This document shows positions 1-44,316 of a stretch of DNA of 64,000 nucleotides, piece by piece. This DNA comes from Lingula anatina (lineage: Eukaryota > Animalia > Brachiopoda), in assembly GCA_051362555.1 (NCBI GenBank), contig CM120642.1:14198001-14262000 (forward strand), written 5' to 3'. A program made the position numbers and the translations under genes. The notes under the pieces are model-generated. The model searched no databases. It was not told the DNA's origin and saw only the letters and a list, made by a program, of their open reading frames with translations. How positions within the stretch are numbered: the first letter of the stretch is position 1; each line of letters begins with the position of its first letter.

Positions 1-95
1 GAGTGTCCTAGCTTACACTTTAATTTTATCATTTACAATTGAAGTATTCAATACTAACATGCTTTACGTTATCTTATTCCATGCTTAAATTTTAG

Positions 96-1334: not shown

Positions 1335-1355
1335 AATAAAAAGTTAATGAATAAA
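1335..1355 (+). terminator. Tandem AATAAA poly(A) signals, probable NUDT6 3' end
   Basis: AATAAA at 1335-1340 and 1350-1355, followed by GT-rich sequence (gccttgttgtgcctggatgtgg). Confidence 0.65.
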
Positions 1356-1959
1356 GGAATGCCTTGTTGTGCCTGGATGTGGAAGCATATTGTACAGGAT
1401 GTGGTGTGAGAGAGCTGTAATTTTTCAAATGCGGTTGTTGAGATATGAGCACATCAAGAGTACTGGTAGAGATTCTTTAAATCACATCTACTGCAATTTG
1501 CTGTGAATATAGTGAGCAGTTCTAACTTCCTTGCAATAACATTGATTACACATTTATCCAGAAGTACTGAGAAAACTGAATTTGAATTTTGACTTTTTTG
1601 TATCATTTCAGTTAAAAAACTTGCTGACAAGCTTTTTTTGATAGAGCAGCTAATTGATTTAATTTCATTATCATCTCAGAATTAAACTCAAGATGTATAT
1701 GTAACTTTTATAAATTTGTATTCTAGTCTTGAAAATAATTCAAAATTTCAAATTAATTTTCAGGAAAGGACCACAAGGGTGTTTATGATAATATTCCAGT
1801 ATGTTTGAATTTGCACATTGGTAATCTCTTCAGTAGTTTCCTGCAGATTGCCATCTCTTTTGCAGTACAGCTTTGCATTAATAATTAACACATTTGGTCT
1901 AAAGCAAATGGCATTCTAAATGAAGACAAAAACAAGGAAATACTTTTCAGATCAAAGCA

Positions 1960-1965
1960 TTTATT
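1960..1965 (-). terminator. Poly(A) signal of a minus-strand transcript converging on NUDT6 (cleavage ~1945)
   Basis: Minus strand reads AATAAA, then ~15 nt, then a GT/T-rich element (GTATTTCCTTGTTTTTGTCTTC). The plus strand turns A/C-rich to the right of this point. Confidence 0.65.
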
Positions 1966-4512
1966 TACAAGCTAATAGCACTAATAATTGCAAAGATGAA
2001 CAAACAAATCCCGATTAATATTATAATACTATTAATATTTAAGCTACAAACAGAGACAAAGAGACGAATTTCACCAATTTACAGAAAATACATTACACAT
2101 CCCACATGAAATACAAAGATGGTGTATCAGTTGCTATAGCAACCAATGTAAATAAGCACCTTCTGAACCAGTGACTTGATGGAAATTTCCCATATGGAAC
2201 ACGAACTAAATTTGCTTGATAATGGCACTAAACTGAGTGTAAAGTTGGTTTCTTGAGAAAAATCAGAAAATTAATAGAAGACGGTTGAAATGCAACTTTG
2301 TCCAAAGCTAATTATATGTCATGAATCTCTCAAGATAAGATAAACAATCTGATAGGAAAAGTTTGTTTTGTTACTTAAGCCTAAATACTGAAACAGGCAA
2401 GATGCACAAAATGTCAGCAGCAAGTTATCTCGGTCATCAATACTGATGATGTGAATACCACAGTTTGCCTCCATACAAACTAAGATGCAACCAATCTAAA
2501 ATCCAACTTCTGTCACCTCAAACAAACCAAACATCACATGGTTTCACAAAATGTCATGATCCAAGTAAATTCTTACTGTACACTTTGTTGCAATGCTGTT
2601 TGGTAAAGAATTACCAATTTTGTCTATTACTCATGAATTTGACTCATAATTCTACATTTTACTCAAAGCAGATGAAAATACCCTATTAATACAATTCTAA
2701 TGCAATTACTACCCTAGAATCTATTCTACCCTCAGTGTAAGTTGTGCAACCCAAGTTGTCTATCTTTGGCAAGAAATTAGCTGTATGTTACATTGGCTTC
2801 TGAATTGCAGGTGCCCTCCAAGTTCTGCAGCTGTCATTGTGATGGGTGAGACAAGCAATTACTGTTGTCATGCTAAGCACAATGTTACAATAACCATTGT
2901 GATAGCAGTTGTACAATTGCATCCAATGTGACTTGTTGTGTGAAGCAGAGTTGGGAGAGCAGCTAACATATTCAGCTAAAAGTTTAAAAACCAAAACCAA
3001 ATTATTGAAGTAAAAGCTATCTATATGTATCTGAAATGTTTCTACATTTTCTAAACTACACACCTAACACTAGCTATTATGTACAGCTAATTGTCACCTG
3101 CAATTGTTGAAACACATCATTATAAACTTCCACTTCAAGTACATGTACAGTACATTAAGATTTCAATTCATTCTTTACATTTAATGATTTACAACAATCA
3201 CATATAAATACCAATCATTTAACAAAGACAAATTAAATATGTATATGATGACTACTCTACTTAAGTATAACTTCCAAGCTAACAAAGCCTTGCATGCATA
3301 AAAAGAAGCTTTAAAATAAAAGCTGGTTTCATATGACGAAGAGAAATCACTGTGATCGTCATCAAAGGTCAGGTGACACTCTGCATGGCATCATGGGATT
3401 GACTGTACAAGAAGGTCATCTTGTGGAGTATGACGTACATCTTTTTTTTAAAGAGCACATGTCAAGTCAGTCAAATTCAGCCACTTATGCAAAGTGAGAC
3501 TCCTTATATCCAATAAAAAAATTCTTTAATCAAAAGTTACTTTTTTATGAACTGCATCAGATCACAGGACATTCTTCTTCAAATCCAACCTGTTCTCTTT
3601 ATTCAATCTTAACTATTTCAAATGATAACTGTACAGACAAAAACTGTAATAAGACGTTTTCAACAGCATTATATGTGCTGTCAAATTAACAACATGAAAG
3701 TAACAGCTAAAACGGGGGCTACACACTGTGAAGGTTTAGAAAAGCAGTTCTATATCCCACTCCTAGTGTTATATTACCACTGAGATCTTAGAAAACTGGC
3801 TGAGAAATCTTTTCAGATTTTCTCCAAAGGGCGCACTCAGAACCATAATTACTTAAACTGGAAATAGGCTTACTACTGACTTCAGATCATATACTAACCA
3901 CTTGACTCGGATATTCAATTTCATGTTGACCAAGTCATCAGGTCATATGTAACTCTCTCTCCATTTTTTTTCTTGTTTAAGTAAACATGGTTTTTAAGGC
4001 CCCTTCAAGTACACTATGGCATCATGCGAGTGAATACCAAGGTCTAAGTTATAGTATGCACTTTTGAAGTGACAGGAATATTAAGCTACAATAGTGACAG
4101 CATTGAACACACTAATAGTTACAATATTTATGTATTTGGCCAGTGGCACAAATGTCGAGTTGTCACGAATGTAAAATTTATATGACAAGCTTACGATGGC
4201 ATTATGAAACTTCACAACCAAAACAGTTCACTACACTGACAACAGAATAAAAAACAACACTTAACAGAACAATGTCATTACAAATAGTGTTACATCTAAA
4301 GATGGCAGCTTTAGGTTTCACCTTTTTAAACACCGCTAATATGAGAATATACTGTCCTCCTGCACAAGCTAATTAACACAACTAAAATTCAACACAGATA
4401 CATTTAAGCTAAAATATATAATAATGTATTTACAGAAAGATGCAGCGTAAACTGTGCACAGCAAAGTTGCAAAATCTAAATAACAAATCCATAAAACAAA
4501 CTGCTTAAATAA

Positions 4513-4764
4513 GGCTTCGTTCACATGCAATGTCTATTTTCTATTTTCTATTTTCGGTATGTCTTATGATCACGGTCTGTGCACTGAATATCCCGCCGCG
4601 TAATTACTGGCAGCGCGAGCCAGTTACTTATAGTAACTTATAGTAACTGGCTCGCGCTGCCAGTAATTACGCCGCGGGATATTCAGTGCACAGACCGTGA
4701 TCATAAGACATACCGAAAATAGAAAATAGAAAATAGAAAATAGACATTGCATGTGAACGAAGCC
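4513..4764. mobile_element. 252-bp fold-back MITE, PIF/Harbinger (Tourist)-type
   Basis: Near-perfect palindrome GGCTTCGTTCACATGCAATG...CATTGCATGTGAACGAAGCC flanked by TAA (4510-4512) and TAA (4765-4767); no coding capacity; CpG-rich in CpG-poor surroundings. Confidence 0.9.
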
Positions 4765-7700
4765 TAACTATAAACTGAAGCATAACATTAAGGGTAACTA
4801 TGCTTATATTCATAATCATACAAGATACAAATATACACATATATATATAGATCATACTAAAAACTGTCAAGTTAAAGATATTTTGCAGAAGCTACTCCAA
4901 TTATTACAAATATTAACATACATTTTAAAGCTACACACCAAAGTTTGTTAGAAAAAACAAAATCCAGTATACGCCATAACATGTCTAATATCTTGACTAA
5001 TATCTTGAATAGCAGTAATTTCTAATTACACTTATAAGGCACATTTCAATATGGAAAAAAAATACGCTGGAGCAAAAGTGTGCAGTGCAGATCATACATG
5101 TATATCATTTTAAACTTCACACCCATTTTTATCACTAAAGGCGATCAAGCTTTGGTGTTTGTGTTGTTTTAGGGAGAACTGTGGGTGTTTTATGTAATTT
5201 TTCCATTAGAGATTTTTTTAGTCAAAATCAATTTCTTAAGGGGTCTGGCTGGCAAAAGTCAGGTAACATTGCATTCCCCCTACTTGTGTACAAATTAAAT
5301 AAAGGTAAAACAAGGCATTAGTATCTAGAAGATGGTGATATTGAGCTGGGCAGGTGTGCTACACAGTTACATCTACCTGAATGTCAGGTAATACCTGTGT
5401 ATATGCATAGTTGAGCACTAGATCGAGACTATGATATGATATTGAGCAATTTTCAATATTCTTTTTTTTAAATCTATTTTTTTTTTCTAATTGGCAATCA
5501 AAATATAGATTTACTAGAAATGTGTATCTAATTTGTCTACAAATGACAGGCTATTCATTACGCATGTGAATGGGATGATTGAGATTCTTAATCCATATAC
5601 CAATGTGAGCATTGACTACCTTGGACTGACTTTCAGGGGCAACCAGTGTCATAGTACTTAATCTGATGCATAGAAAGGACACCAATGTAAATGTGATGGC
5701 TGGAAGGGGAGATGAGAAAACAACTGTGTCATGTTTAAACAATACACAATAAAACAGTCCCCAGTTTTTTTCGGAATCAGCAGTTATATATACATTGAGT
5801 GATCTGGTGCTGACAGAATGGGTGACAGAAAATGATGCCAGTGACATTACAGTGAGAGTGTGCGTAACTGTACAGAGTGGAAGACATGGGTGTCGTTGAA
5901 GCTCATACTCTTGCTTGAAAAAGCATTTATCATGCAATGAGTAACGAAATACTTCACAAATTACAATACTATGAAATCTGGGCACTATACAGGTGTAAGT
6001 TTACGGCAAATCAAGTCTAAAGATGCAATACTTTCAGAGAAGCCCTTGACGAGGACTTGGAGATCAGAGAGGGGGAGACTTTAGCCTGAGGAAATGTTCT
6101 ATGGAGAAAATATATTGCCTAAATTTAACCATCTTAATTTACAACTTCATCAACAATATGAAATTCCCCATAAAACACCAATGTACATTCTTGATGAATG
6201 TTTTAATCATAAAATGCACATTATTAAAGGTGAGTTGAAGAGTGTCAAGGAATACCAACCACTGCTGGATTATTTCCTACCAATCTCCTTGAAGCATTTG
6301 TTTCAAATCTAAAAACATTTCAAAAGAGGAAAGTGTCTTGTGTCAGCATATAGCTTTGGCCATGTCTTATTCTATGAAAAACTTAGACTTGAATACAGAC
6401 AAAGTTCTCTTACAAAATGCAGTTATTTTTAATAAAAGGCACTACAATGCCATTCACAATTAAACATTTATTTGATTGAAAACAAAAAAAGCACCTTGAA
6501 TGCCAACAAATATGCAGATAATAGCAGTACATCAAAAACTTTTTTCAAAAAAAAAAAATAATAATAATAATAAAATAAATAAATAAAAGAAATAAATAAA
6601 TAAGAAAAATTATTAGCATGTTATGTATCTATGAGGTGCAACTTCTAATTTGTAAAATTTAGTGATATTACTTATCATTAGACATTAATACACACACACA
6701 CAGATAAATGGGTATTTTTAAGAAACATTGTGCCCTTTAGTCATGTGGTAAAAAAAAAAAAAAAAAAAAAAAAAAGTTACATAAAGTCATCCATCTTATA
6801 CTATCCTATAGAGTACACTTTTACATCCATTTTGATTTGGATGCTCTGCCAGACAATGAACAATTAACGAAACTACAAACCACAGAGCTGCCAGAGGAAT
6901 AATTATTTCCTTAACAGCTACAATGTACAGGAGACAATTTAATACTAAATCAATATCAATTTGAAGGAGCACATGACATACATGCGTAATCTGTAGCTTT
7001 TAGCTAAAAAGCAAACTGAGGTGATGAATCACTAGGAACAATTCACTTCCGTTAAAAGGTCCAGGACTTGCGTGACTTGATTGTTCAAAGTTCAGTGAAT
7101 TCAGGCAGTGACAGAAGCAAATTAAAACCACACAAAGGAGAAAAAACTCCTTTTGTTCTTTTCAAAGAAGTAGGACATTTACTCATCATTTAATTGGTGA
7201 TGCTGGTTCAGTAATATAATACATAACCTTTAAATGGCACACATATGTTCTCCTCTAGTTACACATGGAGTGCAGTGGCAGACAAATCATTAGCTGGAAA
7301 ATCGGATTCTTGCCCTGATATGTATAGATTATTGGTGGTGGGATTAAGCAGCAAGATTATCCAAGAACAGATATCGTGCACTTACCACATTTTTAGTTGT
7401 CTAGAGTGAATTAGTGAATTACACAACAACCCCAAGTTAATGGTGAATAATTTGATCTGTGCAGGGAAATGATGGTCGTTGGGTTGAGCAGTCGGTCTAA
7501 AGAAAACTTTAGGATGAGGTGGAGTGTGTTAGTTGTGACATTCTGCTTTGTGCAATAAGAAAAATTCTATCCCTAACTTCTTCACTACGAACAGCACACA
7601 CATACACATACACATTAATCTCTTTGGTAATTTCACCATTGTAGACAAATATATCTTTTTCTTACCCAATATTTTTAGCTCCTGTACTAGCACAGGTGGT

Positions 7701-9452
7701 GAGATTGTCAGCAAATTTAAGTGCGTGTGACAAGAAATTGCATTTGTATATAAGCACAACTTTGGTGTTCAAGGCACTAACGTGAAATGTCAAAGAATGA
7801 CCACACAGACAGGCAAACATACACACAAATAGCACCAAATCTATAATACCATTTAATTCAAAAGCTATTTCGATGATAGCATGAGGTTATAGCTCATTAT
7901 CTAAAAAGTCATCTAATCTGGAAAAGTGTAGGCTGATGACCCATGGTAAGACTACTTAGGACAAAGGAAGCAGGCTACATATGCTCCAACCACAAGCTGA
8001 TGAGTAAACTGAAGATTTCAATAACCTGGGGTGGTGGTTAGTCCCCACAAACCCCACAGCCATCTGCCAGAAGAAAAAATCATTTCAGTATAATATTTGA
8101 CAAAATGTACAATGAATTATTTCATCAATATTTCAATCAAACTGTGCTGACTATAAACTACTGGTATGAGGGTGCTCCTGTGTTCCTTATTCTTGACAGA
8201 AGCAAGAAAAAAATTGTAGAGAAGAAATAAATTTTGGAGAAAATACTTCAGTTCAAATCCAACGGAAATAGTTTCTTTGTTTCTTAAAAATGCTCTCCTA
8301 CATCCACAAGGACAGACGGAAAAGTGGTGACTTCAGAACCCACAAGACAGTGCTACAATTACTGACAGGAAATTATCAAAAGCCACAAATTACAATTAAA
8401 ATTTAGTTCCCAGAGAATTCTGAATGTAGATTGTCCATCCTACAGATGAGATTTCGAAAGCCGTGGTTTTTGCCACATCTGTTGTGGTCAAGAGACGGAG
8501 GGGGTTTTAAGGGATTTTTAATCCTTATCTTTTTTATTATAATCCCCTTATATAGTATTCAACAGCTAGGAAGATATGTCTACTCTCTGCAGATACTTAT
8601 GCTTAGTATATTTCCTTGTGAATAGTTTTTGTGCAGAAAAGATGATTATAATATGATAAATATGTGCTCTACTGTATATATGCTGCATATTAACTGTACA
8701 TTTGCACATCAGTCAGATAGCTACCACTGGATCTTGATTAATAATATTGCTAGACTAAATAGTATAATGTAATTGTTAGTAAGACACTCGAGTGAATATG
8801 TAAGAAAATTGAGCATTTCAGTTCAGTTGATAGACCTAACTACTTTTTCCTCCATGTTTGGATTTCAGATGATTATTATCAAAACTGACAGTTACCACCC
8901 TACTGGCCAATGGCAAGCAGTTAGTTGTAATTCATTTTCAGATCTCTTCTTCACAGCACCATTCAAAATATTTTAGTAATGATTTTACAGTGTAATACTT
9001 ATATATATAAATGCAGTGTTTGAAGCAGAATTTCACAATGCTACACGTAAGACCTAACTATATTTTGGACCTTGGATATATGCTTGTAGGACCATTAAAT
9101 TTACGTAATCATCACTGGTATTGTGACTGATATGTTTCCTCCATTTATGTAGATAATATCATTTCATAAATTTCCATCTTTGATTTTTTCATGATTTCAA
9201 CTATGTTAATGGAACATATGTCATAACAGACAAGTAATGGTCATGTAATATCTGTTCTTTAATAGCACCACTGAAATGTTTATTTGAAATGGACAAAGGA
9301 ACCTACCATGTCATACCGTTATTCCCTCCCTGCTTTTTCTTGTTACAGAGCATCAAAAGTTTTAACCCATCCAACAATGTCACAACCTATAATATATACT
9401 GCAGCTTTAACACGATGGTAACATATCTCCACACTACTTAGCTATTAGTACT

Positions 9453-10082
9453 TAGCACCACATAAAACCAGTTACTTTCACCACTTTAGGTTGGCACCAT
9501 TAAAATTTACTGGAATTTACTAACTGAATTTTATTAGGTATAACACACCACTACACTGGCTCATTGGATTATATTTTAGTATACAGCACCATCATAAGTT
9601 AACTGGCATTTGCTAAAGGAATGTTAGAGCATGCACCATCACTAATTTTACTTTGTGCTTTATCTCATAGCATATAGCACCAATAAAATCACTGGCATTT
9701 ACTAATTAGATTTTACCTCAGCAAATAGCACTTCTGAAATTACTTGCACTTATTATCTGGATTACCTCTCGGGATATAGCACCATTAAAATTACTGGCAT
9801 TTGCTAAGTGGATTATCTTTTAGCATACAGCACCACTTAATTTATCTCATTTACTAATTGGATTATCTTCAGGCATGTTGCACCATTAAATTTGGAGTAC
9901 TGACCAATAAGTTTGCTGGCATTCACTAACTGGATTATCATAACACATATAGCACCACCAAATATAAGCACCATAAAATTAACACCAATTTTCCAATTGC
10001 TCTACTTTAAGCATTAAGTACCACTAATGGGTATCTGCAGCTGTTATATATGCTCTAGTCTAAGTATTTCAGTCAAGCACCA
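9453..10082. repeat. Degenerate tandem repeat, ~51-bp unit (approx. TAGCACCATTAAAATTACTGGCATTTACTAATTGGATTATCTTCAGCATA)
   Basis: GCACCA-anchored units recur at ~45-55 bp spacing (e.g. 9675, 9726, 9777, 9828, 9879) with shared ACTGGCATTT and TGGATTAT blocks. Confidence 0.85.
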
Positions 10083-11409
10083 CTAAATGTCAGCACCTTA
10101 ATAATGACATGATAAAATTTTACATGCCTAATTTCCGGGAATGAACTATATCCACTTTTCAGCATGGAATATGATGCAGTAAAAACATCAAAATCATGTA
10201 ATTTTTTTTTACCAAGTGCATAATGTGTACCAAAATTATGCAAATTTTCACCCAAAAAATTACTACAAATTGTAAATTTGAGAATATATTTTTGATACTT
10301 CTGATGCTAATCACATGCAGATGTTTGCTGCTCTTTTTTTCCCCCAGACTACCAACTGTCATGACTAAAAAACACAAGAAAAGCACCTGTTTTGAAATAA
10401 TTAGACCGTATGATGCACACAAGCTCCCAGCATGCTAAAAAGTTCACATGTTTTAATGTTGTCAAGTCATTTTGTTAATTGAAAGATGTCATTTATAATG
10501 AGTTCTCCCTGCCATTGAACAAGGCCCTATACCAATGACTAAGACACCTGCACTGCTGAGAATAATGGTGCCATTAGAATTATTAATTTCTCATACAACG
10601 GATACAATATAATCATCATTTCCATCATGCAATTATACATTCAGAACAAATTCACATTTTGAAACAAAGGAAATATGGGTAGTATTACCTTGCCTGTTCA
10701 TACATAATTCCAAAGTAAAATATATATGCAGAACAAGATGTGGACAGAAAAGCCAGCATCATTTGAATTTAACAGAACTCAAATACAATAGGCAGGTTTA
10801 AACAATAGCAGCAGGGGTTGAATAATGAAAAGCGATTCTTTTATAAAAAAACTTCAATAAAATTTTATTTAGCATAGGTAGAACTGTTAGATATATTTCT
10901 ATTTGTTAGATCATACTCATGAATGAATGAGAATGGCTTACAAAAATTATAACAGAACATGACTGAGATGGAGTATTTTTCAGATCTATTGATTAGCTTG
11001 GTTCAACTTGTTAGTTTCAATAAAAAAATGAAGAAAAGTGTGGAAAACCATCTCAAAATAACTGTGCCACCTAGAATCAGGGACATATCTACTTTTGCAA
11101 AAGCTAAAATCCATCACCAATACATCAAGTAAGATTTAATGACTTTGTTAAAATGCTTTTAAGAACACAAGAGGTTATTACACTAATGTCCTAGCTCAAG
11201 AGAGGTGCATCAAACAGTATTAAGATCACTAGAATATGTGCAATCACATGCTTATATTTTAAGAATATTTTGTCTTTGGTTGAACACTATTTTACATCTT
11301 CAATACATGAAGTGTATGATAATTTGGAAGAATTGAACTTAAACATGCATTGAGAGGACTCACAGACAAAAAAAGATAACCAGAAGCTTTTTTATCTTGT
11401 TTCTAACAA

Positions 11410-11796
11410 TGAGATCAGAAGGAATTGTGCTATCACTGTGACAGATTTGTACTGCATGTTATCAGTACTTGTAATGTTGAGATTTCTTGGAATTATTCTT
11501 GAAATACTGTTGAACTTAAAAGAACTTTAACAAAAAATGAGATCAGTAGGAACTACATACATGTATGCACAGCTTTTGGAAAATTAGCATGAAAATCTGT
11601 TAAAGAATGAAATTCATTAGAACAAAAAAAAAAAAAAAACATGCTGTGATTGTAATGCATCTTTTGTGTGTTTTGGACTGAGATCAGGAGCACGCTACAG
11701 CCAAGATGTTTTGTACTTGTGCTCTAAGTAATAGATATACAGTACCCCAAGGCACAGACTTTGTTAGACTGACATGCAGTTTTAGTTTTGAGATCA
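11410..11796 (-). promoter_or_regulatory. Cluster of four bantam 8mer seed sites (TGATCTCA on minus)
   Basis: Plus-strand TGAGATCA at 11410, 11538, 11679 and 11789. Confidence 0.65.
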
Positions 11797-12027
11797 TAAA
11801 GGTGTGCTTTTTGACAACATCATATTTAAATATTATACAGATTCATATCATAATCAAAATGTGCATGGCTACTTGCCTACTGGTACATACAAATTTACAT
11901 CAACCAACCACAGTAGAAATACTATCATTAAAAACATCCATATAACTAAGCCTATACAAAAAGGGCTAAGAAAAAGCACAGAAAAAAAACAAGAGCTATA
12001 AGAGTGAATACATCCTACATATTAGTA

Positions 12028-12054
12028 AATAATAATAATAATAATAATAATAAT
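12028..12054. repeat. (AAT)n microsatellite
   Basis: Direct reading. Confidence 0.95.
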
Positions 12055-15000
12055 TACAATGGAGTTCTATGCTACAGTGGTTTTGACGCATGCACCGGTG
12101 CACTGTTAAATGTAAAAAAAAAAAAAAATGCAAATATCAAGTATTGCACCCAGCCATTGTTAACATTTATGAGGATTGTGTGTGTATAGTTATATTGAAA
12201 ACCATCACCAGGGTCAAGACAATGTAATTTAGTAAAGCCAACATTAATTTTTTTAACCAAAATATCCATACTTTGGGTTTCCTGAAAGATTTTTTTTCAG
12301 AAACAGAATTATAAGTATTAACTTACAATAAAGTTGGGAACGTTCATCATATATGGACAGTCATTAACTACATGCATTTCTATGTGTTAAAAGACTACTG
12401 TCAGAAAAACAATTCTCTGATTATACTTGTAAATAAAAAACCAAACCCAAGTTATAAGCAAAGTAAGCAACTGGCGCCATGTTACTTATGTTGGAGACAT
12501 ACTGTAGACATAAATGAATACAGTAACTACAGCTCACATAAAATCTATTATTCTGCATGGATACAGATACAAATCCATAGCATTGGGACCCCACACCCAG
12601 GATTCTACACTAAATTCTTATTGGTGTACAACAAAGAAATATAAAATAATGCAGATCTTTCATGCTCATGCGACATCATTTCCTTAAGCCAGAGATGGCT
12701 CTTTACACTGGGCAATAACACTTCCTTTAAAGCCCCTTCCACTAATGAAATGTCCATTTTTACATTAAGTTAAGTGCAGTCAAGGAGAATGAGCAATTAC
12801 CATTAGTTAATTAAAAAGCAGCTGACCACTGTCTGCCCATGCACTTAATCAACTCTTGGACACTAGAGTGACCCTTAAAGGTGGACAATACTGACCACAG
12901 CATCTCAACTTATTGCACGCTGTCTTTGGCTTTGATCTTTTTGTCATGCACATGCTCGATCAAAGAACTAACAGAACACAGAGCAGAACAATAGGTACAT
13001 CTCACACAGTAAGGAAATCCTTCCATTCTTTGCCTTGATGCTTTTTAAAGCAGAATACATCAAACACGATAACATTTTACACAAATATGCAAGACATGAT
13101 ATGTCATATATTTGGACACATATACCCTGAGATTGCTGCTTTGTTATTATTCATTCAAAAGCATATTACACTTGGAAACAGTTTACAAGCAAAGCTTTTT
13201 CCTATTTACCACTCCGACTTTCAGAGATTACTGGAAATTCGCCTTTATTACTGAGAGGTAATTTTTTTAGTAATTTCAAAAATACAGGGTGATATCTACA
13301 TGCATTGGAAAAACAAAGCATAAAATGAAAAAAAAACACACCTTTCGAGACATGCAAGTGACATTCTTTTGTGAAAAGTCATAAAAGATTTAATTTCATT
13401 TGTTGATGTTAATGTATATTGAAAATACAAACACATTGCACTGAATGGCATGCAACTGTGGTATTATCCATGGACAAGCTGGTAACTACTATATATTTTG
13501 AGAAATATGTTTTTCACAGTTTCTATTGTACAGAAAATAAAAAAGTGTAGTCCTATTTTGTCTCATTATTTTAAGTAATGGCCTGGGTTAGCATCGTCAA
13601 AGGTGTGTTTCCGGCATTTTATTTCATAAAATTTCTCCAACGCAGACATTGTTGGAACAAAACAAAGTAAAATAATGAATATTTGGCTGTTGTAGTTGTT
13701 GTTTCACTTCGATTGCTGCATGGTGGGTTTTTAGCGTCTCAAAGCTGAAAACAGAGCAATTACAAGTAAATGCAACACACCTCTTTGACATCAATCCTCC
13801 CCCACCACCCACATACTACATGTACTACACAAAATCTGGTTGGAAGACAGAATCTTTTGTCAATTAATTTCCTTATTTGTACAAAGAACATGAAGCACAC
13901 ATCCACCCACATATACAATGTCGCAGACACAACAAACAAAAATCTGTGAAGTGTGCTTAATTATATTCAAACTACAAGAAGCATTAAGGTGCAATTGCAT
14001 TTTAATATGAGTAAATCCTTTCAAGTGTAGGTGTTATACACAATTCCATAGAAAAACATGGACCATCAACTTCACTGAAATGTGAACATCAGTCTGGCAC
14101 ACTGCAGACAAACTAAGCATTACTGGATAAAAACAAAGTCATTAAATTTACTACTCCCTCACAACTCCCTCCACCTAGCCAAAGTGATTTTAGTATACTA
14201 GCTGCAGACATGCACAGAAAAATTTATTTTACATAAATGTGCAAGAAAACCTATCTAAGAGATGAAGACGTATTAACAAATTGATCTACCGTAGCCTCAG
14301 AAGTTGCCTGAAAAAGTTTAAATATACTATTTTTTCTACAAGTGGGTTATTAATCAGAAGGCACTTGGGAATATCATGAGACAAATAAAAGTATGACAAA
14401 TTAAATAAAATGAAAGTTTTTCTCTGAAAATCTCACTAGTGTCTGCATGATTAGTTTATCCACACCAACACCAGGAATCGTTACTCAGACAATAAAAATT
14501 ACCATCAGAATTTTAAAAAAATAGCAGTGAGGCTGGGAAATGATATCTAATGCACCCAATACACCTGAAAGCACCTACTCATTCACTGGAGTAAAACTCA
14601 ACCAACCATGCACATTGGATTGTTCTCAACACTTCTATATTTAATATCTAATCATCCCATGCAGCTGAAGCAATAATGAAAAAAAAAAAAAAGATATTCA
14701 ACACGTGCACCTTATTCAACCAAGTTAACTTTAGTGCCATTTGTTTATTTATTTGATTTATAAGATTTCAAAGATGGGAGAAAATAAGGCCATGTAAACA
14801 AAGGTGGCAACCCGCAGCAATGTACTGTAGATAAACAACACAAGTGCTGTTTATTTCTTTCACAGTGTTAGCAGGCAAGCTGATTTATCTGATGCGCAAT
14901 ACACCAACTCTCTGGCTTCATTGAAGGTCAATGGCCTACTTTTAATTCCTGAAAAGTACTTTTACCAAAACATGCCAAACACTGTGCAATTTCAGTTCAC

Positions 15001-18000
15001 TTTGAATAACAAAGAAAAAAGGTTACAATAGTTGTTAGTAGGTGAATTTACGGAGGCCTCTAAAAATAGAGTTCTACTAAAATAAACTTTAAGAAAAAAA
15101 AGGTCAAGTTAGCCCAAGTACATGACACTAAAAATCATAATCCAAAAGTCAACATAAATCTGCATAATATTTAGAGTGCACCTATATCCTTCCCTTTTAG
15201 AATGACTCATATTAATTTCCATGCACAAACAAACATGAAAGGTGCGACAATCCAGTAAGAAGTTCAAGGTCCAGGCAATCAATAGGTACATATCCACCTA
15301 TAATAAACTGCATGACCCACACTATTAGTAATATGGGGACCTGGGAGTGGAAATAATGCCAGCACCAGAGATAAAAGCATCCAGATCAGAAAGACCAGAT
15401 CTAGGGACAGGTACACAAGGGACATACAACTATTGACACAACAGCTTACTCATCTCGGGGAGTATTGATCAATTTTCGGACACAAGAAGGCTGTAGAACA
15501 GTTATGTCGATAACTCCAGGTTTTCTCCCACCATTCTGTCTCTCTCCCCCCCCAAATCCGACACCAGTTCCCCTCACCTCGGCACACCTAGGTGCCCAAC
15601 CCCTCACCAATTGATGAGGAAAATGAAAAAGAATATATTTTACTATGCAATAATGCACTCCTTGCTCTTGCTGGCCCAATTAAGGTTGGGTTCAATGACA
15701 AAAGTTAACAGTAAAATATCCTAACCACAAGTACACATGAACATAACCATCATGACATAAATCTAAAAGTTGCTTAGTTGCTATAGTTCTTTAAGGAATC
15801 AGCTCACTGTTCATAAAAAGGGGAGTACTGAATAACCTCATTTGTGACGTTATAAAAAGTCAGAAAAAAAGAACAATGGCAAGTAAAAAGTCTTGTGAGC
15901 AGTCTTGGTCGAATGAACTGCACCAAGATACACAGACACTGCCTTGGACGACTGTCCCATTGTGTTGTGTAACATACCAAGATCAATGGTCACATATGAC
16001 TAAACTCACAAGCTGTCCTTAATAAACCCCGCAGCCACCAAATCACATACCTTAAGGATTTCAGACTAATTAAGGATTCCAATATCATGATGGATTTTTT
16101 TTTGTCCTGGTAAGTGGCATGAAAGGTCCATACATCTTGGCATTGGGTAATGGAGTTTTGATCATAATCATGAGTGGTTTAATTAAGTAGAGAAGTAGCA
16201 CCAGGCAGGAGCAGACCACTGCACTCTGTTGTCAAAGCCAGGGTTTACGTCAGTGAAAACAATTTCCATGTCATTTTGAGTGTGCGGTTAATATGCCAGC
16301 TGGTGCTTAATGGATACAAAATATACATTGTTTAAATTAAAAGCATCAGATTTGCGTCAGAGGCATGGCTGTGGTGTCAAGATGTATTTTCAGTAAAAAG
16401 AGTGTGGTTTGAATGAATATACATGTGCATAAAATAGATGTCCTTCACTGAAAAGTACCCGGTTAATTTTGCCTCCTCCCCCTCTCCCTCTCTCCTGCCC
16501 ACTGCCACACTGCTCCAATTAAAACGTAACAGTTAACAACGGATCTAACAAATTGCAATCAATTAAACTTACATGAACTTGCACAAATGTATACAAATTA
16601 CATTAACTAATGCATAGTTGTATGACATTGTCTGTAGGCATGATGGGAGGATACAGAGTACACAACGAATACATTACAATTTGGCTTTGATATTTCATTC
16701 TAAAAGAGACAAAGTCCAAGTTAACTTATTTCAATGCCATATCATTCCATGTTCCTATGGTTGATCAAACATGTCATTGTGCTTTTCCCAATGACTTCAC
16801 AGACAGTGTCATACACAAAAGACAAGGACACATATGAGGACACAACATCAGAACTTTACCAATTCCAAACTCCATCAGCACATATGAGAGCACATAAACT
16901 AAAACATTTACAATAACATTTTCATACTGGAACACAATCTGATACAGGCTGCATTTATCATCAATAAGGAAAAGTGCCGATTAATTTTTTTTCGAAGTCA
17001 TTACTACAGGCCATGTCTGAACACCAATGGTTAAGAGGCCCTTTCAGTTGTTAAGGACACTAAAATAATGCCTTTTTTCATCTCAACTTGTTGCATTCAA
17101 GTGGTATTTCAGGACAGGCAGGTTCTTCACCGCAAGAGGCATTTCACAGGATTTTGTACATGATCCTTAACAAGGCAAAGATCAATGAACTGCCTATTTA
17201 CTGGATTTCTACTGAGACTGCCATTACTTGATCATGACCCTGTAGGGACATGATCTAAACAGACACCTTTCATCACTACTGCCAATTCCAATGGATTATA
17301 CTGCTTCTTGGCATTAATACTATGATGGAGTTTTTCCATGAGCCTCAACCCACATGACCTGCCATTATTGATTTATACAGTGTCCTGGCTCCACATTTTA
17401 CAGTAGGGGCACTGTATTGTGGATATAACCAACCTGTCCTGACTTTACCTCAGTTTACTGAACTGATAACATCACTTTCTCCTGGCAGTAGCTGCTATAA
17501 AAAGGCACTATAGCCTTAGATGACTCTACTGCACTGTCAATAGTAAATGCTGAAATTCAACATCTAATGCAACAAGCCAAGTGGAAAAGGATGTCCTTAA
17601 GAAATGGGGTTTGTTCTTAACACTAATTGGAGTGTAACCCTTCAAGAGCCATGTCTTAGCCTTATGGTCTTATTGTAAGGTTTTCATAATTTTATTTATC
17701 ATATCTCATAAAATGCAGATGGAATTTGTAAATGGTGACATTTCAATTTCAACACATTTCTTTTAATTCTTAACTACTTAAAGAATACTTTCAGAATTTT
17801 TTCATAAAATAAAAAATAACATCAATACTGGCCAAAACATATTCATCTAAACATTTGTTACAAACTAATCCTTCCTCTAAATACTCTACAGCATATCCAT
17901 TTCATCCTCATCATCTTAACTAATGAAAGCGAGGGACAACTCTCTTACCTAAAAACCTCTTCTTTCTCAGTTTACAATTTTTCTTTGCAACTTGCAGCAA

Positions 18001-20478
18001 GGACAAAGTATTGGTAACAGTCCAATTTGGCAGCAGAGTCGTCTTTCTCTTATCATCACTGTCTCTTCTGGTTCAAGTTGTACTTGGATTAATTGTTTCT
18101 GTTGAGAAAGGTCAACGCCACAGCCTTATTGCCCATCAGTTAATCTTTTGGCAAGGCAATGTCCTTGAGTATTACAGGTACAATTCTGTCTGGGATGAAA
18201 ATTGAGGAATAGCTGAAAACTGTCTGGAAGTAGAGAAAGTCCACCACTTTCCTCGACTCATGCTGGTTCTCTCTCTTTTTTTTTCAATTTGGCAATATTG
18301 CACACTCTTCTTCATACTTTTTTCTTTGACATGTCTTTGTCATTATTGCACAATCTACAAGTTACTTCAGCTATTATTACCCACTGTTCAATTCATCTTT
18401 CTGTTTTTCTTCTTTTTTTTGTTCCATATTTCGTTTATTATGCTTAATTCTAATTGATCGATTGTTCCCACTTCATTATGACATTATTCTTTTCTGGTCT
18501 ATCAAAGAACAGGAGTACACTGCTATTTCACTAGATTTCTAACTGTAAATTCTCTTAACTACTCATAATATTCAATATTTTCTTGAAAGAATCATAAGAT
18601 TCAATATTTTCTTGAAATGAATAAGATCTTTGGAATAATACTGTCTTTGGTAAATGCTGGATTGGAGTCAGTACTAATACAAACTTCGTCTAAGATGACT
18701 CTTACAATATAGTCATCAAACCTTAATTTCTACTGCATTCATGATCTTTCCAGTAACAAATGTTGACAAGATTAAAGAGAATGATTGCTCACTGACCCAA
18801 CAAGAATTGGCAAATGCAGATACTTTCAGTGTCAGTAACTGAGGATACATCAGAATCATTACTAACTGTGAGATCATTACTGAAGAAAAGAAACCAACAA
18901 AGCCAAACAGAAGCTTGAGCGAGTGATTGATGGAGCGTAGTATGATTAACTAGGCAGTCTGAGTCAATCCTCTTAGTAAAGTTCTAATGGGCTCTGGGAA
19001 ATGACTGGTTCACTGAATGTTGACCATAAGTCCATTGTTGGCACAGGTCCAACTACCTCTGAGGTGAAACATGGAAAGCTGCGATTATCATGCCCAAAGA
19101 AGGTGAAACGCATTTGACAAAGTCATCTTCTGTAAGAGAGAAACCCCTCTCTTAATACTGCAGTCCTCTATGGATTCACATCAATTGTCCCATTTCTGTG
19201 AAAAATTTATGGTTATCTTCACTTTTTGTGTCAATACAGAGTCAATGACCCTCAAATGTTATCTATAACACTTGTCCTTGGATTTGTTGTTTTTGTGCCA
19301 AAGTTATTAATTTAAGCAGAGTACAGATAAGGTATCCTTTGTTTATAGGTAGTGTAATACTGCTATACAGTCCTACTGGCCTCTATCCCTGTAGAGTATC
19401 TAAATCATCTGATAAATGTAGTGTCTCCTTTCTCTGTTTCTGAAGGCTTTCATAATCGTCATGCTTTTTAACTACTCGACTTATATTTTCACTGTCATTA
19501 AAAAAGAAAGGGGGATGTCTTGTCATGTCTTGTTGACATTTACGATCCTGTTAACATTGCCTTATGTGATAACTGAGATAACGGCATATATTTGATGTCT
19601 CTACTTCTTGTTCTTTTGTCTTGATTTCCCATGGTGAAATTGACACTCGATATACTCCAAATTGACAGTTTTTTTTTTTTGGGTTTTTTTTCTGTTTCTA
19701 TCATGAGAAAAAAGATAGTGCCTCTCTCAGCATCTCACATTACTTAACCTTCCTTACTGAATCGAATGACTGACATATTCTACTCTACTTCTACTTTTCT
19801 TAAACATCAAGGAACATGACAAAGATGCAAATACAGTTTGTCTACAAACATCAAAATACTAATACTGAATGATATTACAGAATAGTAAAACAAAGAAAAA
19901 TAACAGAAGATCTTCAAACTGAAAACATTAATGAGTTTCTTTTGTTTGTAAATTGTCTTTGTTTCTCCTACTTATGACCTGGTTGCCATGCAGAAATGAT
20001 GGATCACCTTTGTTAGTTGCTTATTTCATAAATAATGCATCAACTACAGACCAAAAAGGTATGCATTAATAGTACCAGAAATAAATGTTAATGGCATGAT
20101 CACATTTGCAATACATGGAATGCTGGTATATCAGTGAGAAAGAGCATTTGTTGTGATAACAATGGTTTTCTCATAAATTATATCATTTCTTCCTTTTTTC
20201 TTCTTTTTTTCTCTTTTTTTCTTTTGATTAAAATAAATGCAGCTAGGATTTATGCTGAGATCGGAAGCATGTTGTAAATTCTTTCTTTGTTGTTAATGTC
20301 CTTGTCGTTAGGTGACAAATCAGGACTTTTTTCATTTTTCTTTATTTCTTCAATGTTTATTTCAGTCTTTTTTTTTTCTTTCTTTGTTCTTTTCGACTTA
20401 ATTTTTTCTTCTTCAAATCCTGTAATAAAGTTTTGTTTTGACCACTTTTTTGAAGGTCACATCTTTCGTTGGTTTAGA

Positions 20479-21754
20479 TCTTTGGATAGTTTAGGTTGCT
20501 GGTTGATGTAGGTCTTTGGTTTGCGTTAGTCTTTGGTTGGTTTAGGTCTTGTCCTATGCACCACTTTGGTAATTAGCCATTAAAGCAGCTACCTTGAAGA
20601 CTGTATTGCTATACAGAATACTCTAACTGCAGGTGAGTAATACCGCGCTTGAGTGATCACCGCTATGGTGATTACTTGAGTATTGATTAATAAATGTCTC
20701 ATCCTTACTTCATAATTAAGAACCGCAAAAGCTGTTCACGGAGGTCTAGACTTTGATTACCATATTATGCAATGTTTCTATTCCCAGGAGTATGAGATGG
20801 AGGAGATTGGATGCAGTGGGTGGGTTTCGTGGTCAGGAACAGCTTTCGTTCTGGTAGACCAATAATGAAGTGGAGAGCTGACTAGCTGAGATTCATAGTA
20901 GTAAATACGTGATTCATCCTTAGTGAGCACCTTGTGATTGTAAGTTTCTTTGTTTACAGCTCCCCTGAGCTAAGAGTGATTAAAATGCACCGAGTGACCC
21001 CCGGCATCTTCATACGTCTCTCTGGAAAGACTAGTCCCAGGAGACCGCCTATTGTTCAACTTCCCAATCACCCTCGTTCCGAGCTTGGAGAATGAGATCA
21101 GAAGGCAGAGGTTAGAGCAGTTATCATGAGGCATTAAAAGTTAATGGCAGTGGCCTTCTTTCTGTGCAAAAGTTATTTCGTTGGAAGACATTACACATAG
21201 TCAACATCAGCGGCTCTTCCACTGGTCAACAGTAACATGTATGATGGAAGCAACTGACTATTTATTGTATCATACTAGAATCTGTAATAAAGGGGAAGAG
21301 CTACAGAAACATATGACACCCTCTTCAGGCTCATCCTTCCGTACCCTGCTGTTGTCTGTTACCCTGAGTTCCTCTGAGACTCTTCACCGGACATTTCCAC
21401 CAGACGCTTGGGTGTCTGGGGCCTGCACTAAGAACGTGCATTCCTTACAATCTTCTGTGAGATGCGGGGTGATGACGCTTTAGCTGACAACGATGAACCT
21501 TTTCCCTGAGACTTTAGCTTTGACTAGATGGAAGCCCATGTTGGACTGGCAATTGGCACTTGACATTCGGATTTCACATCCATCTTGATTGTGACGTCAC
21601 ATCACCCCATTACATCAAACAGAACTACATGAAATCATCATACCTTTAAAAACGCATCCCTATATCTGTTTCATGGCACAGTGATGAGAAGGTTGCTGGT
21701 ACCGACATCATGGAATCCCCTCTTGGCAGTGATATGGTGTGCATGATGAGGTAG
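20479..21754 (-). promoter_or_regulatory. Dense block of seed-match sites for many conserved miRNA families
   Basis: Plus strand spells the 5' ends of miR-9, -137, -12, -1993, -279, -1175, -219, -125, -277, -71, bantam, -34, -7, -10, -36, -96, -183/263, let-7 and others (coordinates in findings). Confidence 0.7.
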
Positions 21755-22639
21755 CAACTCTAGAAATATAGAGGGGAGACCACTGGGGCTCTTGTGCAGC
21801 TATATTTGGGAGGCGGCCAGGTGTCGGTACCTGCAGAAGAAGGTGGTAGTTATTTTTTTTTTAGATCAAGTACAAAACCACGGCATCTCAGTTTTAGTTT
21901 TAAAAAATGTTATTTCAAATTAAAATTAAACTAAGAGTGTTCTCTATGCCCCTGTTCACTATCTTATGGCTAAATGAGTATAAATGTGTACATTCTGTTT
22001 GTTAAAAAAAAATAAATAAAACGGTCAATATGCCAAAATAAATGTATTAACTACAGGCATGATCAGGCACATAACACATTCTAATATCACGATTCTGGGT
22101 AAGGCTTGTGTACTAGAGTGAACAAAATACTATAAGAACTGGTACTTTTAAGTGCAAATTGACGTATTCTTTTATTTATTTTATGGATATAAATACTAGA
22201 ACACACCTTTCAGCTTGATCAAAATATATATCCGGTTTGAGATTTGAAAACACACGTGCTGTCCCAGGAAGTACTACACTTCCTTTTTTAAAAAAAAAAA
22301 CTTGGTGTGAAAAAGTTTGTTTTCATTATCGTTCAAAACATTAAGCTGAGAAATATTTGAACTCTAGCCAAATTTTGTTCCTACAGAGCATCAGCTGATT
22401 TCAGTTGATTTGGGTCGTTGCCAACAATGTCACTGACTTTAAAACCAGCCTTTTTTATAAAAGCCGTAAAAATTAATACACTTAATTGCCAAAAACTTGA
22501 ACCTTTCATTCTTTCCAAAAAAATATAAACACAGAGGACGGGCGGGACAGGTGTCTCCAAACTACGCAGTGAACGTGAAGCTGCTACTCACCAGCATAAT
22601 CGTACGATCATCCACCGTCATGTGTACGCGGCATTCCAT
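21708..22639 (-). CDS. Possible 56-aa spliced small ORF (join 22639-22592, 21830-21708): MECRVHMTVDDRTIMLVPTPGRLPNIAAQEPQWSPLYISRVATSSCTPYHCQEGIP
   Basis: First ATG after the inferred TSS, open across a phase-0 intron. No recognisable homology; overlaps let-7 and miR-34 sites, so it may be incidental. Confidence 0.25.
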
Positions 22640-22676
22640 CGACAGCACTCTGTGCTCCACGTACTCGGCCGCCTCT
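22592..22676 (-). ncRNA. Putative first exon of the long minus-strand RNA
   Basis: Strong donor CTG|GTGAGT at 22592/22591; CpG-rich; Inr-like TCAGA at ~22676, 31 nt downstream of TATAAAA. Confidence 0.7.
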
Positions 22677-22700
22677 GAGATGACACGGTTTTACGATCCC

Positions 22701-22855
22701 TTTTATACGGCGCACGTCACACGTTTCCTGAATTTGAGGTCTTTGTTGAGCGTGGATCCGTGTCAGTGATGTAATTCATTCACGAATCTCGTTGTCGAGG
22801 AGGGAATCCCATGTGATGTTGGTCACGTGACCGGAATACCCCTTTCCTTTTATAG
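22701..22855 (-). promoter_or_regulatory. Pol II promoter: TATAAAA (22707-22701), TGACG half-CRE (~22716-22720), palindromic E-box GGTCACGTGACC (22821-22832), second TATAAAA (22854-22848)
   Basis: Motifs read directly; canonical TATA-Inr spacing; lies at the CpG-poor/CpG-rich boundary. Confidence 0.65.
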
Positions 22856-30545: not shown

Positions 30546-31337
30546 TCATCCACTGATAGTCCTGTCTCTGTTTCTATTCTTCCTATGCCTTTTTCCTTTC
30601 CTCTTTCGTCGTTTTCTGTGTTTCTTTTTCCTCCTCCGCGTGGATCGAGACTTTGACGTGTCCCCTCCCCCTCCTCCACATGGGATCTCGGAAGGGTTTG
30701 TGGGACGAACCGCCTGAAGAGCCGTTCTAGACGCCGCATTTTCACCGACATGCTCTGAAATTGTTTCAGTCTTTTGGTTTTGGCTTTGCAATTTCTCGTT
30801 TTGCTTCGCAAGAGACTTGTCATTGCCAGACAGTTCCACAATAAGACTTTCTACGTCTTTTTTGCTATCTTCACTGACAGCCCTAAGGTCTGTTTTCTTT
30901 TGACTCTCTTTTTCAGCGCGGTCCCTATTATTTTTATTATCATTATTATTTTTGTCTTTATTATGCTTCTTATTCCTCTTTCTACTTCGCCCACACCCTC
31001 GCCGCTTGCGTCTGTTGCACCTTTTGTTGTGTTTACTATGTCTAATATGAGGGGTTTCGGTTGTCACAGTAGCCATCGTACTCCCTACGTAGCCAAACAC
31101 CCTCTCGTCACCTCCCTTTGGTGCAAAAACATCGTCTAGGGGTTTTTTAATCCACTGGGCGCGGTCTTGTTGACTCAAAGTTTTCCGTCCCGATCTCGGC
31201 CTTCCGTTTTTGTTCATAGCAATATACCATCTCTTCCTTCCGCTTGTAGAGTTTGTATAATACTTTTTACTGTAAAACACTTCGTAATGGTGAGGAAGGT
31301 ACTTGCTATAAAATAAACACTCGTCCGTTCGGTTGAT
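30546..31337 (-). CDS. FGF: FGF last core exon plus long basic, low-complexity C-terminal tail
   Basis: Poly-T acceptor TTTCAG at 31338; phase 0; INRTDECLFYSKYLPHHYEVFYSKKY...RWYIAMNKNGRPRSGRKT...QWIKKPLD matches the FGF ECxF and YVALNKDGxPRxG motifs. Confidence 0.95.
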   Translation of the reverse strand: MNRTDECLFYSKYLPHHYEVFYSKKYYTNSTSGRKRWYIAMNKNGRPRSGRKTLSQQDRAQWIKKPLDDVFAPKGGDERVFGYVGSTMATVTTETPHIRHSKHNKRCNRRKRRGCGRSRKRNKKHNKDKNNNDNKNNRDRAEKESQKKTDLRAVSEDSKKDVESLIVELSGNDKSLAKQNEKLQSQNQKTETISEHVGENAASRTALQAVRPTNPSEIPCGGGGGDTSKSRSTRRRKKKHRKRRKRKGKRHRKNRNRDRTISG

Positions 31338-34300: not shown

Positions 34301-35976
34301 TATATCACGCATGTTTTCAGATCTTTTAAACAGGAGACAACAAATTGAATCAGAGTTTTCCAGCAAAGCGCCAAAATAGATATCAATCCAGCAAATTATC
34401 TTTAAAGCAAGCACCAAACGCGAGCACGGCCTGTTGCCGTCTTTACGCGCGTTGTTGACATGATAGATTAATCTAATTGTTCCTGGCGATATGTTGACGT
34501 ATCTGGGTGTATTGGTGGACTATCTTTAATCGGCGATCTGTTACGTGACGGAGCTTACCCAACTTTAATGATTCGATCAAATGAAAATTATGTTTCACGT
34601 CTTTATCGGTTTCCCATTAACTCTACCTCTACCCTTACGCAATTTTGCCCCCCTTTATTCATCAATAAACACAACACAAACTCAAGGCAGACTTGGCTTA
34701 TATATTGTGAAATTTTACGAGGTCCTCCATATCTATCGGTGGACGATGGAGGCAACCTGGCTAACCTCCTTATCGCCCTTATCTTGAAGTATCGATATAG
34801 GAGTATTGAGACGCCCGCTGAAGACAATGGCCTATCAATACGCAGGCACCAGTGTGATTGGGGCATTCGGTGCAAACTGCTTCAGATAAAGAAGGGATAT
34901 AATATGTAAAAGCAAACAGCTCGGATGGAGCTTGTGATCTAGTAAGTCAGCTGACGCCAAGGTAACCGCATAGTCCGGATACCTATAAGGTGTGAAATTC
35001 ATGCCATTGAGAGGGGGAAGGGTGGGGGGAGGGGTGTTCCGCTAGGACATAGTTCATTAGTTATACAACCACATAACAGAACCACACAAACAATACATTG
35101 GTGGCAGAGCGCGCCGTTATTGTGGCTTCGTGATGCTATTTAAAGACGAATTATTATGTGACACTACAGTGTGGTAACGAGTACAATTCTTAAGTGGTCG
35201 TCCGTGAGTCTGAGCCAGCGGTTCAACCACACCAGTGAGCAACCACAAATAACGATGTCGCACTGGTGAAAAGTTAACCATTTGTTTACAGCGACTCAGC
35301 AAGCAGGACACGCCATGACGGCAGGGCGCACGACAACTTGACTGATCACCACCAGGGCAACGTTTAGAGCAGCGTTCCCACCCCTTACCCTTAACAAAAC
35401 CTCCCTAATCCGAAACGGCGCCTCCAAGTTATACTTTTTCTTCACTAACAGCGCCACGGTGAACTTTTTCCGCTATACATTTGACTTAAATCCGCGATCG
35501 CGTTAACTTTCATCTGTGAAAGATCAGATAGCCAACCCCCTGGTCGCAATAACGGAATTTTCTTTCCATTAAGAGAGAAAAAAAAGAGTGACCTTTCAGC
35601 GTTCCAGCAGTAAATTAACAGGACAGTTTGATTCTCGTCTCTCTTGTGGGAAGCGAAGTGCAAGGGGTAATCGGGATACCCTCCAAATATCTCAAGGTCA
35701 TGAGGTTAACTTTATTAACCTGAAAATTCCCAGTGAGTTAAGTATTATGAAGATGTGCCTCTACTGGGACATGTTTTCGATATTGTCACCGCTCAGTGTG
35801 ACCTGATGCCGCAACACACAATAATTGCACTTCTTTGCCAAAACAATCCAATATGGAGAAGTCGCTCATGTACACGAGAAATTGTTTCTTCAGAGATGTA
35901 TTTCTAAACCCAATCTTTAAAAAATTCATAAAAGTATAAATAAAGGAAAATTCAAGATAATTCAATCAATACATAC

Positions 35977-36125
35977 CCCTCCGTACAGACGTCCTCTGTT
36001 ATCCATGCACAGATATCGCGAACTTTTAATCCCCTGTATGCTTAGCACTGTCTGTGCAGGTTTTTTCTTATCGGCTGGCCATTTATATGCCATAGAAGTC
36101 AATACTGTGATAAGATTCAATATAC
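35977..36125 (-). CDS. FGF: FGF middle core exon (149 nt)
   Basis: TTTTTCAG acceptor and GTATGT donor; (G)ILNLITV...VLSIQGIKSSRYLCMDNRGRLYGG is the canonical FGF V.I.G..S..YL.M...G.LYG motif; phases 1/0 fit both neighbouring exons. Confidence 0.95.

Positions 36126-44259: not shown

Positions 44260-44265
<6 letters not shown>

Positions 44266-44313
<48 letters not shown>
44266..44313. repeat. (TA)n microsatellite in an FGF intron
   Basis: Direct reading. Confidence 0.95.

Positions 44314-44316
<3 letters not shown>

Follow-up and report, generated by a model that had tools for sequence, protein, structure and literature searches.

A minus-strand transcription unit of about 20 kb between NUDT6 and FGF in Lingula anatina is enriched in seed sites for many microRNA families

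In a 64-kb stretch of the Lingula anatina genome (the window, from whose first nucleotide all positions are counted), a unit of about 20 kb lies on the minus strand between plus-strand NUDT6 and a minus-strand fibroblast growth factor gene (FGF). We found that the body of this unit is transcribed on the minus strand and that it carries an excess of microRNA seed sites that is strand-, guide- and site-type-specific. An initial annotation of the window had proposed that the RNA is a decoy or degradation hub for many microRNA families. A multi-family microRNA-binding RNA is now well supported, and the hub role is one that we advance conditionally, since most sites are seed-only. We judge it about equally probable that this abundant RNA does or does not work as a many-family decoy, which would hold Argonaute-microRNA complexes and likely trigger the decay of a subset of the microRNAs.

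The excess was measured with 55 guide seeds (nucleotides (nt) 2-8) fixed from parts 1-2 of a table for the annelid Platynereis (PMC12257675, supplement 3); table rows after miR-1994, and miR-137, miR-193-P1, miR-2001, miR-33 and miR-1994, for which the table gives no sequence, lie outside this set. Counted from full 7-mer tables, these seeds have 143 sites on the RNA (a script run on the 42 seeds present gave 143 again), compared with 70 on the opposite strand and 258 in an 82-kb control, equivalent to 62.6 per 19.9 kb. Random 7-mer sets matched on control counts gave 61 ± 9 sites, with a maximum of 106 and 0 of 20,000 sets reaching 143, and block-wise dinucleotide shuffles gave 70 ± 9. Without the six top families there are still 90 sites where 52 ± 9 are expected, and seed by seed, 31 of the 55 are commoner on the RNA strand, 7 rarer and 17 tied (sign test p 1e-4). 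The 8mers are the most skewed (66; opposite strand, 18; shuffles, 22.5), followed by 7mer-m8 sites (77 vs 48), with no excess in the weakest types (7mer-A1, 70 vs 68; 6mer, 120 vs 138). Nor is there an excess for 40 passenger-strand seeds from the same table, which number 59 on the RNA, 55 on the opposite strand and 56 in the control (by eye). When 7- and 8-mers were scanned without any microRNA input, the plus-strand list was headed, homopolymers aside, by the seeds of miR-29 (13 vs 2), miR-9, bantam and miR-125, the top words' counts on the other strand being 0-2. The claim that the plus strand spells the seeds of many conserved families is thus borne out, and the comparison with antisense and shuffled sequence that had been proposed as its check, extended to passenger seeds, gave a strong excess on the RNA strand. 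We infer that this pattern is the product of selection for working microRNA sites. Of 40 substitutions and 12 indels (among 1270 and 177 in all), 0 lie in sites, numbers too few to tell, and a metagenome scan with a three-site pattern gave 0 matches.

The homotypic arrays and the dense heterotypic block that had been described within the unit are both present:

1945..21830, minus strand: long exon 2 of the predicted RNA, with 143 seed sites for 42 of the 55 guide seeds; read-covered from 1640 to 20180
20450..21830 (about 1.4 kb), minus strand: dense mixed block, with 25 7mer-m8 or 8mer sites and 7 7mer-A1 sites, for 22 seeds
9264..10082, minus strand: miR-29 array, 9 seed sites in a degenerate ~51-nt repeat
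11411..11796, minus strand: bantam array, four 8mer sites 110-141 nt apart, with flanks hardly alike

The dense block holds 25 sites vs 3 on the opposite strand and 4.8 ± 2.0 in shuffles. It is the best window of its size in the 64 kb, and outside the unit such a window has at most 11 sites. Its seeds include those of let-7, miR-34, miR-96, miR-279, miR-125, miR-10, miR-7, miR-71, miR-277, miR-1175, miR-1993, miR-12, miR-9, bantam and others; some of the miR-10-family matches overlap one another. Folding of 20850-21830 revealed no unusual structure (z +0.9). Among the five copies of the miR-29 array that were compared, identity is 100% over the six seed columns and 81% elsewhere, with a second block about equally kept; a 188-nt back-joint in run X7 (see below) suggests that copy number varies. 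With the arrays and the dense block masked, 98 sites remain on the RNA vs 57 (8mers, 41 vs 18).

Reads from four of nine same-species RNA-seq runs (X1, X3, X4 and X7) were mapped on positions 1000-20180. X4 and X7 gave depth in 30 of 30 bins, with unbroken cover from 1.64 to 20.18 kb. In the stranded run X4, first mates lie on the plus strand in each of the 29 bins between 1640 and 20180; only in the bin of the NUDT6 untranslated region (UTR; 1.23 vs 0) are they on the minus strand. With that bin as internal control, the orientation identifies the RNA as minus-strand. The initial annotation had named the lack of a minus-strand transcript, and an interval made up mostly of intron, as outcomes that would speak against it; the transcript is present, and the body (1640-20180) is read-covered and not mostly intron. 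Among the 15 joints listed of the 25 in 1000-20180, none is of intron type; those listed concern a polymorphic palindrome, poly(A) runs, one repeat and the miR-29 array. Being transcribed, longer than 200 nt and mostly exonic (1640-20180), the unit has the transcript features of a putative long noncoding RNA (lncRNA).

Depth in X4 is 197-546x near the 3´ end, compared with only 1.2x for the NUDT6 UTR, 2-12x mid-unit and 102x at 19.6-20.2 kb. At the 3´ end it falls from 197x (bin 1640-2279) to 0 on the minus strand in 1000-1639, and fragment ends accumulate at 2010. The unstranded run X7 has reads in all 30 bins, with a depth per orientation of mostly 10-40x or less, and X1 and X3 show 0-2x outside repeat bins, a near-silence that may come from tissue, stage or divergence. 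Expressed as reads per kb per million records, the values are about 45-52 (X4), 13-21 (X7) and about 0.2-0.3 (X1, X3), so that the samples differ about a hundredfold in the amount of this RNA. In combining many sites with high abundance the unit resembles a sponge, apart from its copy number relative to the microRNAs. Between 17000 and 20180, X4 depth rises from 9x to 102x toward the 5´ end, and fragment ends pile up at 19965 without an adjacent poly(A) signal. A shorter isoform holding the dense block is possible, as is capture at internal A runs; both fit.

Several features of the transcribed sequence stand apart from the site counts. At 4512-4765, inside the RNA, lies a near-perfect palindrome resembling a miniature inverted-repeat transposable element, with 96-nt arms that are 99% identical. 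Reads of X4 jump across it (joint 4509-4765) and, in every run, many reads align to it only partly. Such a pattern points to a repeat insertion that is polymorphic and would fold into a long hairpin. About 20 nt at 11291-11311 are common to a transcribed repeat elsewhere, and many X1 and X3 reads run off there. Each of the sites at 5879 and 21025 is similar, across 12-14 nt, to miR-7 as well as to miR-71, one of which meets a single mismatch or bulge in the seed (by eye). An Rbfox-type hexamer occurs 20 times on the RNA, 10 times on the opposite strand and 6.3 times in the control, which may partly reflect CpG decay; between the strands, Pumilio-type words number 4 vs 4 and AU-rich words 7 vs 4.

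A minority of the sites could pair with the microRNA beyond the seed in the manner of triggers of target-directed decay. Platynereis guides served as stand-ins for the 3´ ends of Lingula microRNAs, which may understate pairing, and the threshold was at least 6 contiguous Watson-Crick pairs, applied by script to 53 sites of the six commonest families and by eye to the other 90. Ten of the 143 sites reach it: miR-8 at 2384 and 18637, miR-31 at 2768, miR-124 at 6436, miR-190 at 7317 and 13098, miR-29 at 9264 and 9676, miR-7 at 13842 and miR-12 at 18167. The script accounts for 5 of 53 (control sites, 1 of 47; random flanks, 2.9%) and inspection for 5 of 90. About 4 would be expected (p ~0.01, the null rate being borrowed from the six families), so the earlier count of at least nine sites with extended 3´ pairing is right and part of it is due to chance. 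Sites with trigger-like pairing include:

2384..2410, minus strand: trigger-like miR-8 site, 6 contiguous 3´ pairs, −14.9 kcal/mol, p 0.002 vs random flanks; overlaps a miR-31 seed site
6436..6455, minus strand: trigger-like miR-124 site, seed plus nt 15-21, 7 contiguous 3´ pairs
7317, minus strand: second miR-190 site, nt 18-24 paired (by eye)
9454..9475, minus strand: trigger-like miR-29 site, 10 contiguous 3´ pairs including two G:U
13098..13116, minus strand: trigger-like miR-190 site, seed plus nt 12-21 (by eye)
13842..13864, minus strand: trigger-like miR-7 site, an 8mer with a central mismatch, nt 15-20 paired, then two G:U (by eye)
18167..18183, minus strand: trigger-like miR-12 site, an 8mer plus nt 13-19 (by eye)
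18637, minus strand: second miR-8 site, built like the miR-12 site at 18167 (by script)

The miR-29 site at 9454..9475, at −10.5 kcal/mol, lies beyond all 600 random flanks; the other trigger-like miR-29 sites are those at 9264 and 9676. Validated triggers have 3´ pairing energies of −9.6 to −17.1 kcal/mol, and 12 of 13 have at least 6 contiguous 3´ pairs (PMC10899785). The 8mer excess (66 vs 18) supplies the strong seed match that also characterizes triggers. As membership of the class is defined by a functional test, the RNA is a candidate member.

The 5´ 2.5 kb of the unit, above the mapped interval and including the dense block, were predicted from sequence signals, and those named earlier (TATA-initiator, donor, acceptor and poly(A) signal, all on the minus strand) are in place:

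22713-22719, minus strand: CRE-like word just upstream of the TATA box
22707-22701, minus strand: TATA box TATAAAA of the predicted promoter
22592..22676, minus strand: predicted exon 1, with an initiator-like TCA 31 nt below the TATA box and a consensus donor after 22592
21831..22591, minus strand: predicted intron, with an acceptor before 21830
21708..22639, minus strand: predicted open reading frame (ORF) from the first ATG, 56 codons (16 + 40), crossing the predicted junction
1965-1960, minus strand: poly(A) signal AATAAA, with the RNA end near 1945

The donor at 22592 is one of only 5 consensus matches in 1.9-30.5 kb. The spliced RNA would be about 19,970 nt long, and the predicted intron has 2 seed sites in 761 nt, the background density. 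The CpG observed/expected ratio is 0.04-0.6 across the unit below 22.5 kb (one bin, 0.82) vs 1.06-1.32 at 22.5-23.7 kb. A low-CpG body behind a high-CpG start is typical of genes with a methylated body and an unmethylated promoter. The sequence signals and the CpG shift would fit a putative promoter separate from that of FGF. A second TATA-like word, at 22849-22855, precedes the first by about 150 nt, and a palindromic E-box 10-mer lies directly below this second word (22813-22855). The two TATA words possibly form a tandem, inducible promoter.

The location of the unit between its neighbours, as first annotated, follows from the match of the FGF exons to let-756 and of the ORF at 89-427 to NUDT6:

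89-427, plus strand: last coding exon of NUDT6 (E 5.7e-30 to human NUDT6), convergent with the 20-kb RNA
30546..50206, minus strand: FGF gene, source name let-756, upstream neighbour on the same strand
50206-49823, 36126-35974 and 31349-30549, minus strand: FGF exons by protein match

The FGF exons match the Lingula anatina let-756 protein P0001 at 97.8-100% identity. Positions 52047-52280 on the plus strand are the first exon of a gene head to head with FGF, whose start resembles a mitochondrial-targeting sequence; Pfam and Atlas searches with this exon gave no match. In vertebrates MICU2/3 adjoin FGF9/20, which may bear on the identity of this gene. By name alone, let-756 is FGF9/16/20-like (for placement of the subfamily, see PMC3420111). 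An Rfam scan of the 64-kb window gave 0 matches at the gathering score and no precursor hairpin of a known family, and in 20300-21900 two weak matches, both unrelated.

How might such an RNA act? We suggest that it would start at the TATA promoter at 22.7 kb, be spliced once, and present seed sites that selection maintains and Argonaute binds. The binding dose could be raised by tandem copies (miR-29, bantam, miR-9), and the 5´ block would give one or two sites per family at a spacing of mostly 12-75 nt. About 6-10 sites composed of seed, loop and 3´-paired segment (miR-8, miR-29, miR-124, miR-190, miR-7, miR-12, miR-31) may expose the microRNA 3´ end and recruit ZSWIM8. Switching the gene on would then make many microRNA activities drop together in one cell state.

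A number of observations weigh against action on the microRNAs. Thirteen of the 55 seeds are absent, including miR-133, miR-184, miR-242, miR-375 and miR-281; miR-2, miR-216 and miR-252 are at background, and 7 seeds are commoner on the opposite strand. Seed sites are no more accessible than GC-matched positions (p 0.5). The 3´ pairing signal is modest. In the six families, the difference in duplex energy from control sites reaches only p 0.06, and the length of the 3´ run gives p 0.011 vs control sites but p 0.13 vs random flanks; only 3 of 53 sites reach −9.6 kcal/mol, an energy computed here from nt 9 with a program other than that of the trigger survey. The ten 6-pair sites are confined to the body, outside the dense block, a separation that suggests two modules. 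A single 20-kb molecule is not proved by short reads, and the rise in X4 toward 20 kb hints at shorter 5´ species. In the Kah preprint (10.1101/2024.12.11.627053), a single trigger outperformed a synthetic fourfold one. For the additional seed-only sites of Cyrano and libra, the authors who described them proposed regulation of the lncRNA and not of the microRNA (PMC7798263).

That last reading, carried over to Lingula, is the alternative that survives best: the RNA may be a heavily repressed target, either a small-ORF mRNA (56 codons and a 19.7-kb 3´ UTR, the Nrep layout) or an lncRNA with another job, whose seed sites confine it to cells poor in differentiation microRNAs while the microRNAs are little affected. 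We consider this possible but rather unlikely. The statement that the unit has no long ORF stands in that the longest ATG ORF on the predicted RNA is 98 aa; it missed the 56-codon ORF that the first ATG opens across the predicted junction. An Nrep-like small-ORF mRNA is therefore possible on the predicted structure. Of the 143 seed sites, 141 are located 3´ of that ORF's stop, in keeping with the position of decay-trigger sites outside translated sequence. Most sites are closely spaced, seed-only 8mers or 7mers, and expression is near zero in two of the four runs, points in favour of this reading. However, an ORF of this length arises in 5.7% of shuffles, its start context is weak, and let-7 and miR-34 sites fall inside it. 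No credible homologue was found for its 40-residue exon-2 part, the part searched (Pfam, 0; word search, 0; ESM Atlas, no usable match). Seven weak multi-stretch matches to this part were rejected as chance; of the four scanned, two are immunoglobulin-repeat proteins and two have only short DUF3640-like matches. Moreover, the RNA is very abundant in X4 and X7 despite its sites, and a subset of the sites shows trigger-like pairing. We favour action on the microRNAs because the RNA stays abundant, sites for single families are amplified in tandem, and a minority are trigger-like. Few sites should suffice to repress a noncoding RNA, so about 80 excess sites, tandem-amplified, would fit action on the microRNAs better than repression of the RNA. 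Seed-only sites could contribute as well, since tts-2 needs only seed pairing (PMC12324485).

The very high multivalency and length of the RNA, its mostly seed-only sites and its homotypic arrays would also suit a scaffold or reservoir, which gathers Argonaute-TNRC6 into granules, or stores or protects microRNAs without destroying them. Such storage or protection has been proposed for CDR1as and miR-7. The trigger-like sites would be superfluous in a scaffold, and we hold this improbable. A still more doubtful proposition is that the unit belongs to the upstream FGF gene, whether as an extended 3´ UTR or as an alternative last exon, with sites that tune the FGF mRNA. The unit does lie on the same strand, about 8 kb downstream of the FGF stop, but the FGF UTR is closed by ten AATAAA signals at 27.6-29.1 kb, seed sites in its near part are at background density (2.3/kb), and the TATA box, initiator and donor lie at 22.6-22.7 kb, where CpG content shifts. 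Finally, a chance product of base composition or repeat expansion is hardly credible: the miR-29 array is a degenerate tandem repeat and CpG decay raises CA and TG words in the region, but the excess persists against block-wise dinucleotide shuffles, matched 7-mer sets, passenger seeds and the opposite strand, and after the arrays are masked.

It has long been asked whether any natural RNA has the sites and copies needed for broad sponging. With about 80 excess sites over dozens of families, this abundant RNA provides a direct test case, and if it turned out to be a repressed target, it would still be an extreme case of combinatorial microRNA control. Fewer than 20 endogenous triggers were known, compared with more than 100 ZSWIM8-sensitive microRNAs (PMC12324485), and the largest endogenous trigger cluster that we found described comprises two families. 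It is conceivable, and in our view unlikely, that much of the microRNA repertoire inherited from early bilaterians is reset at once by one inducible RNA, which degrades or sequesters about 30 families, and that orthologues with the same site content, without alignable sequence, lie between NUDT6 and FGF9/16/20 in other spiralians. If true, such a master trigger would explain many of the ZSWIM8-sensitive microRNAs that still lack a known trigger.

Among known RNAs, the homotypic seed-site array of the Lingula RNA is shared with CDR1as (ciRS-7), which is circular, mammalian and directed at essentially one family. The closest likenesses are to libra/Nrep, Cyrano and Kah, which also bear sites for several families but far fewer. 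The first, libra/Nrep, is a zebrafish lncRNA and mammalian small-ORF mRNA with a trigger-type miR-29 site, conserved sites for miR-29 and eight more microRNAs, and perhaps a short ORF (PMC7798263, PMC10899785). Both have a trigger-like miR-29 site, further seed sites and a possible short ORF. However, libra/Nrep is vertebrate, about 2.2 kb long and has one trigger site, whereas the Lingula RNA has 20 kb, sites for 42 seeds and an array of 9 miR-29 sites. A similarity at the protein level was not found. Cyrano (OIP5-AS1), an lncRNA with a miR-7 trigger and conserved miR-25/92, miR-137 and miR-153 seed sites (PMC7798263), shares with the Lingula RNA sites for miR-7, miR-92 and miR-153. Its one miR-7 site is very strong, with 14 pairs, in contrast to 6 pairs and two G:U in the best Lingula miR-7 site, and the families on the Lingula RNA are far more numerous. 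Unlike the Lingula RNA, Drosophila Kah is a protein-coding mRNA, shown by experiment to degrade two families (preprint 10.1101/2024.12.11.627053), and tts-2 (C. elegans; 882 nt) and marge (Drosophila), both developmentally regulated invertebrate lncRNA triggers (PMC12324485, PMC10899785), act on one family each. The view in the initial annotation that known triggers serve mainly one family each was too strong, given two families for Kah and nine microRNAs for libra/Nrep. In titles and abstract openings, a search outside which most subscription papers and bioRxiv supplements fall, we found no description of the Lingula RNA, nor any trigger or decoy RNA from a lophotrochozoan. Sites for several families on one trigger RNA are thus already known, and what is new here is the scale, the dense block with about one site per family, and the lineage.

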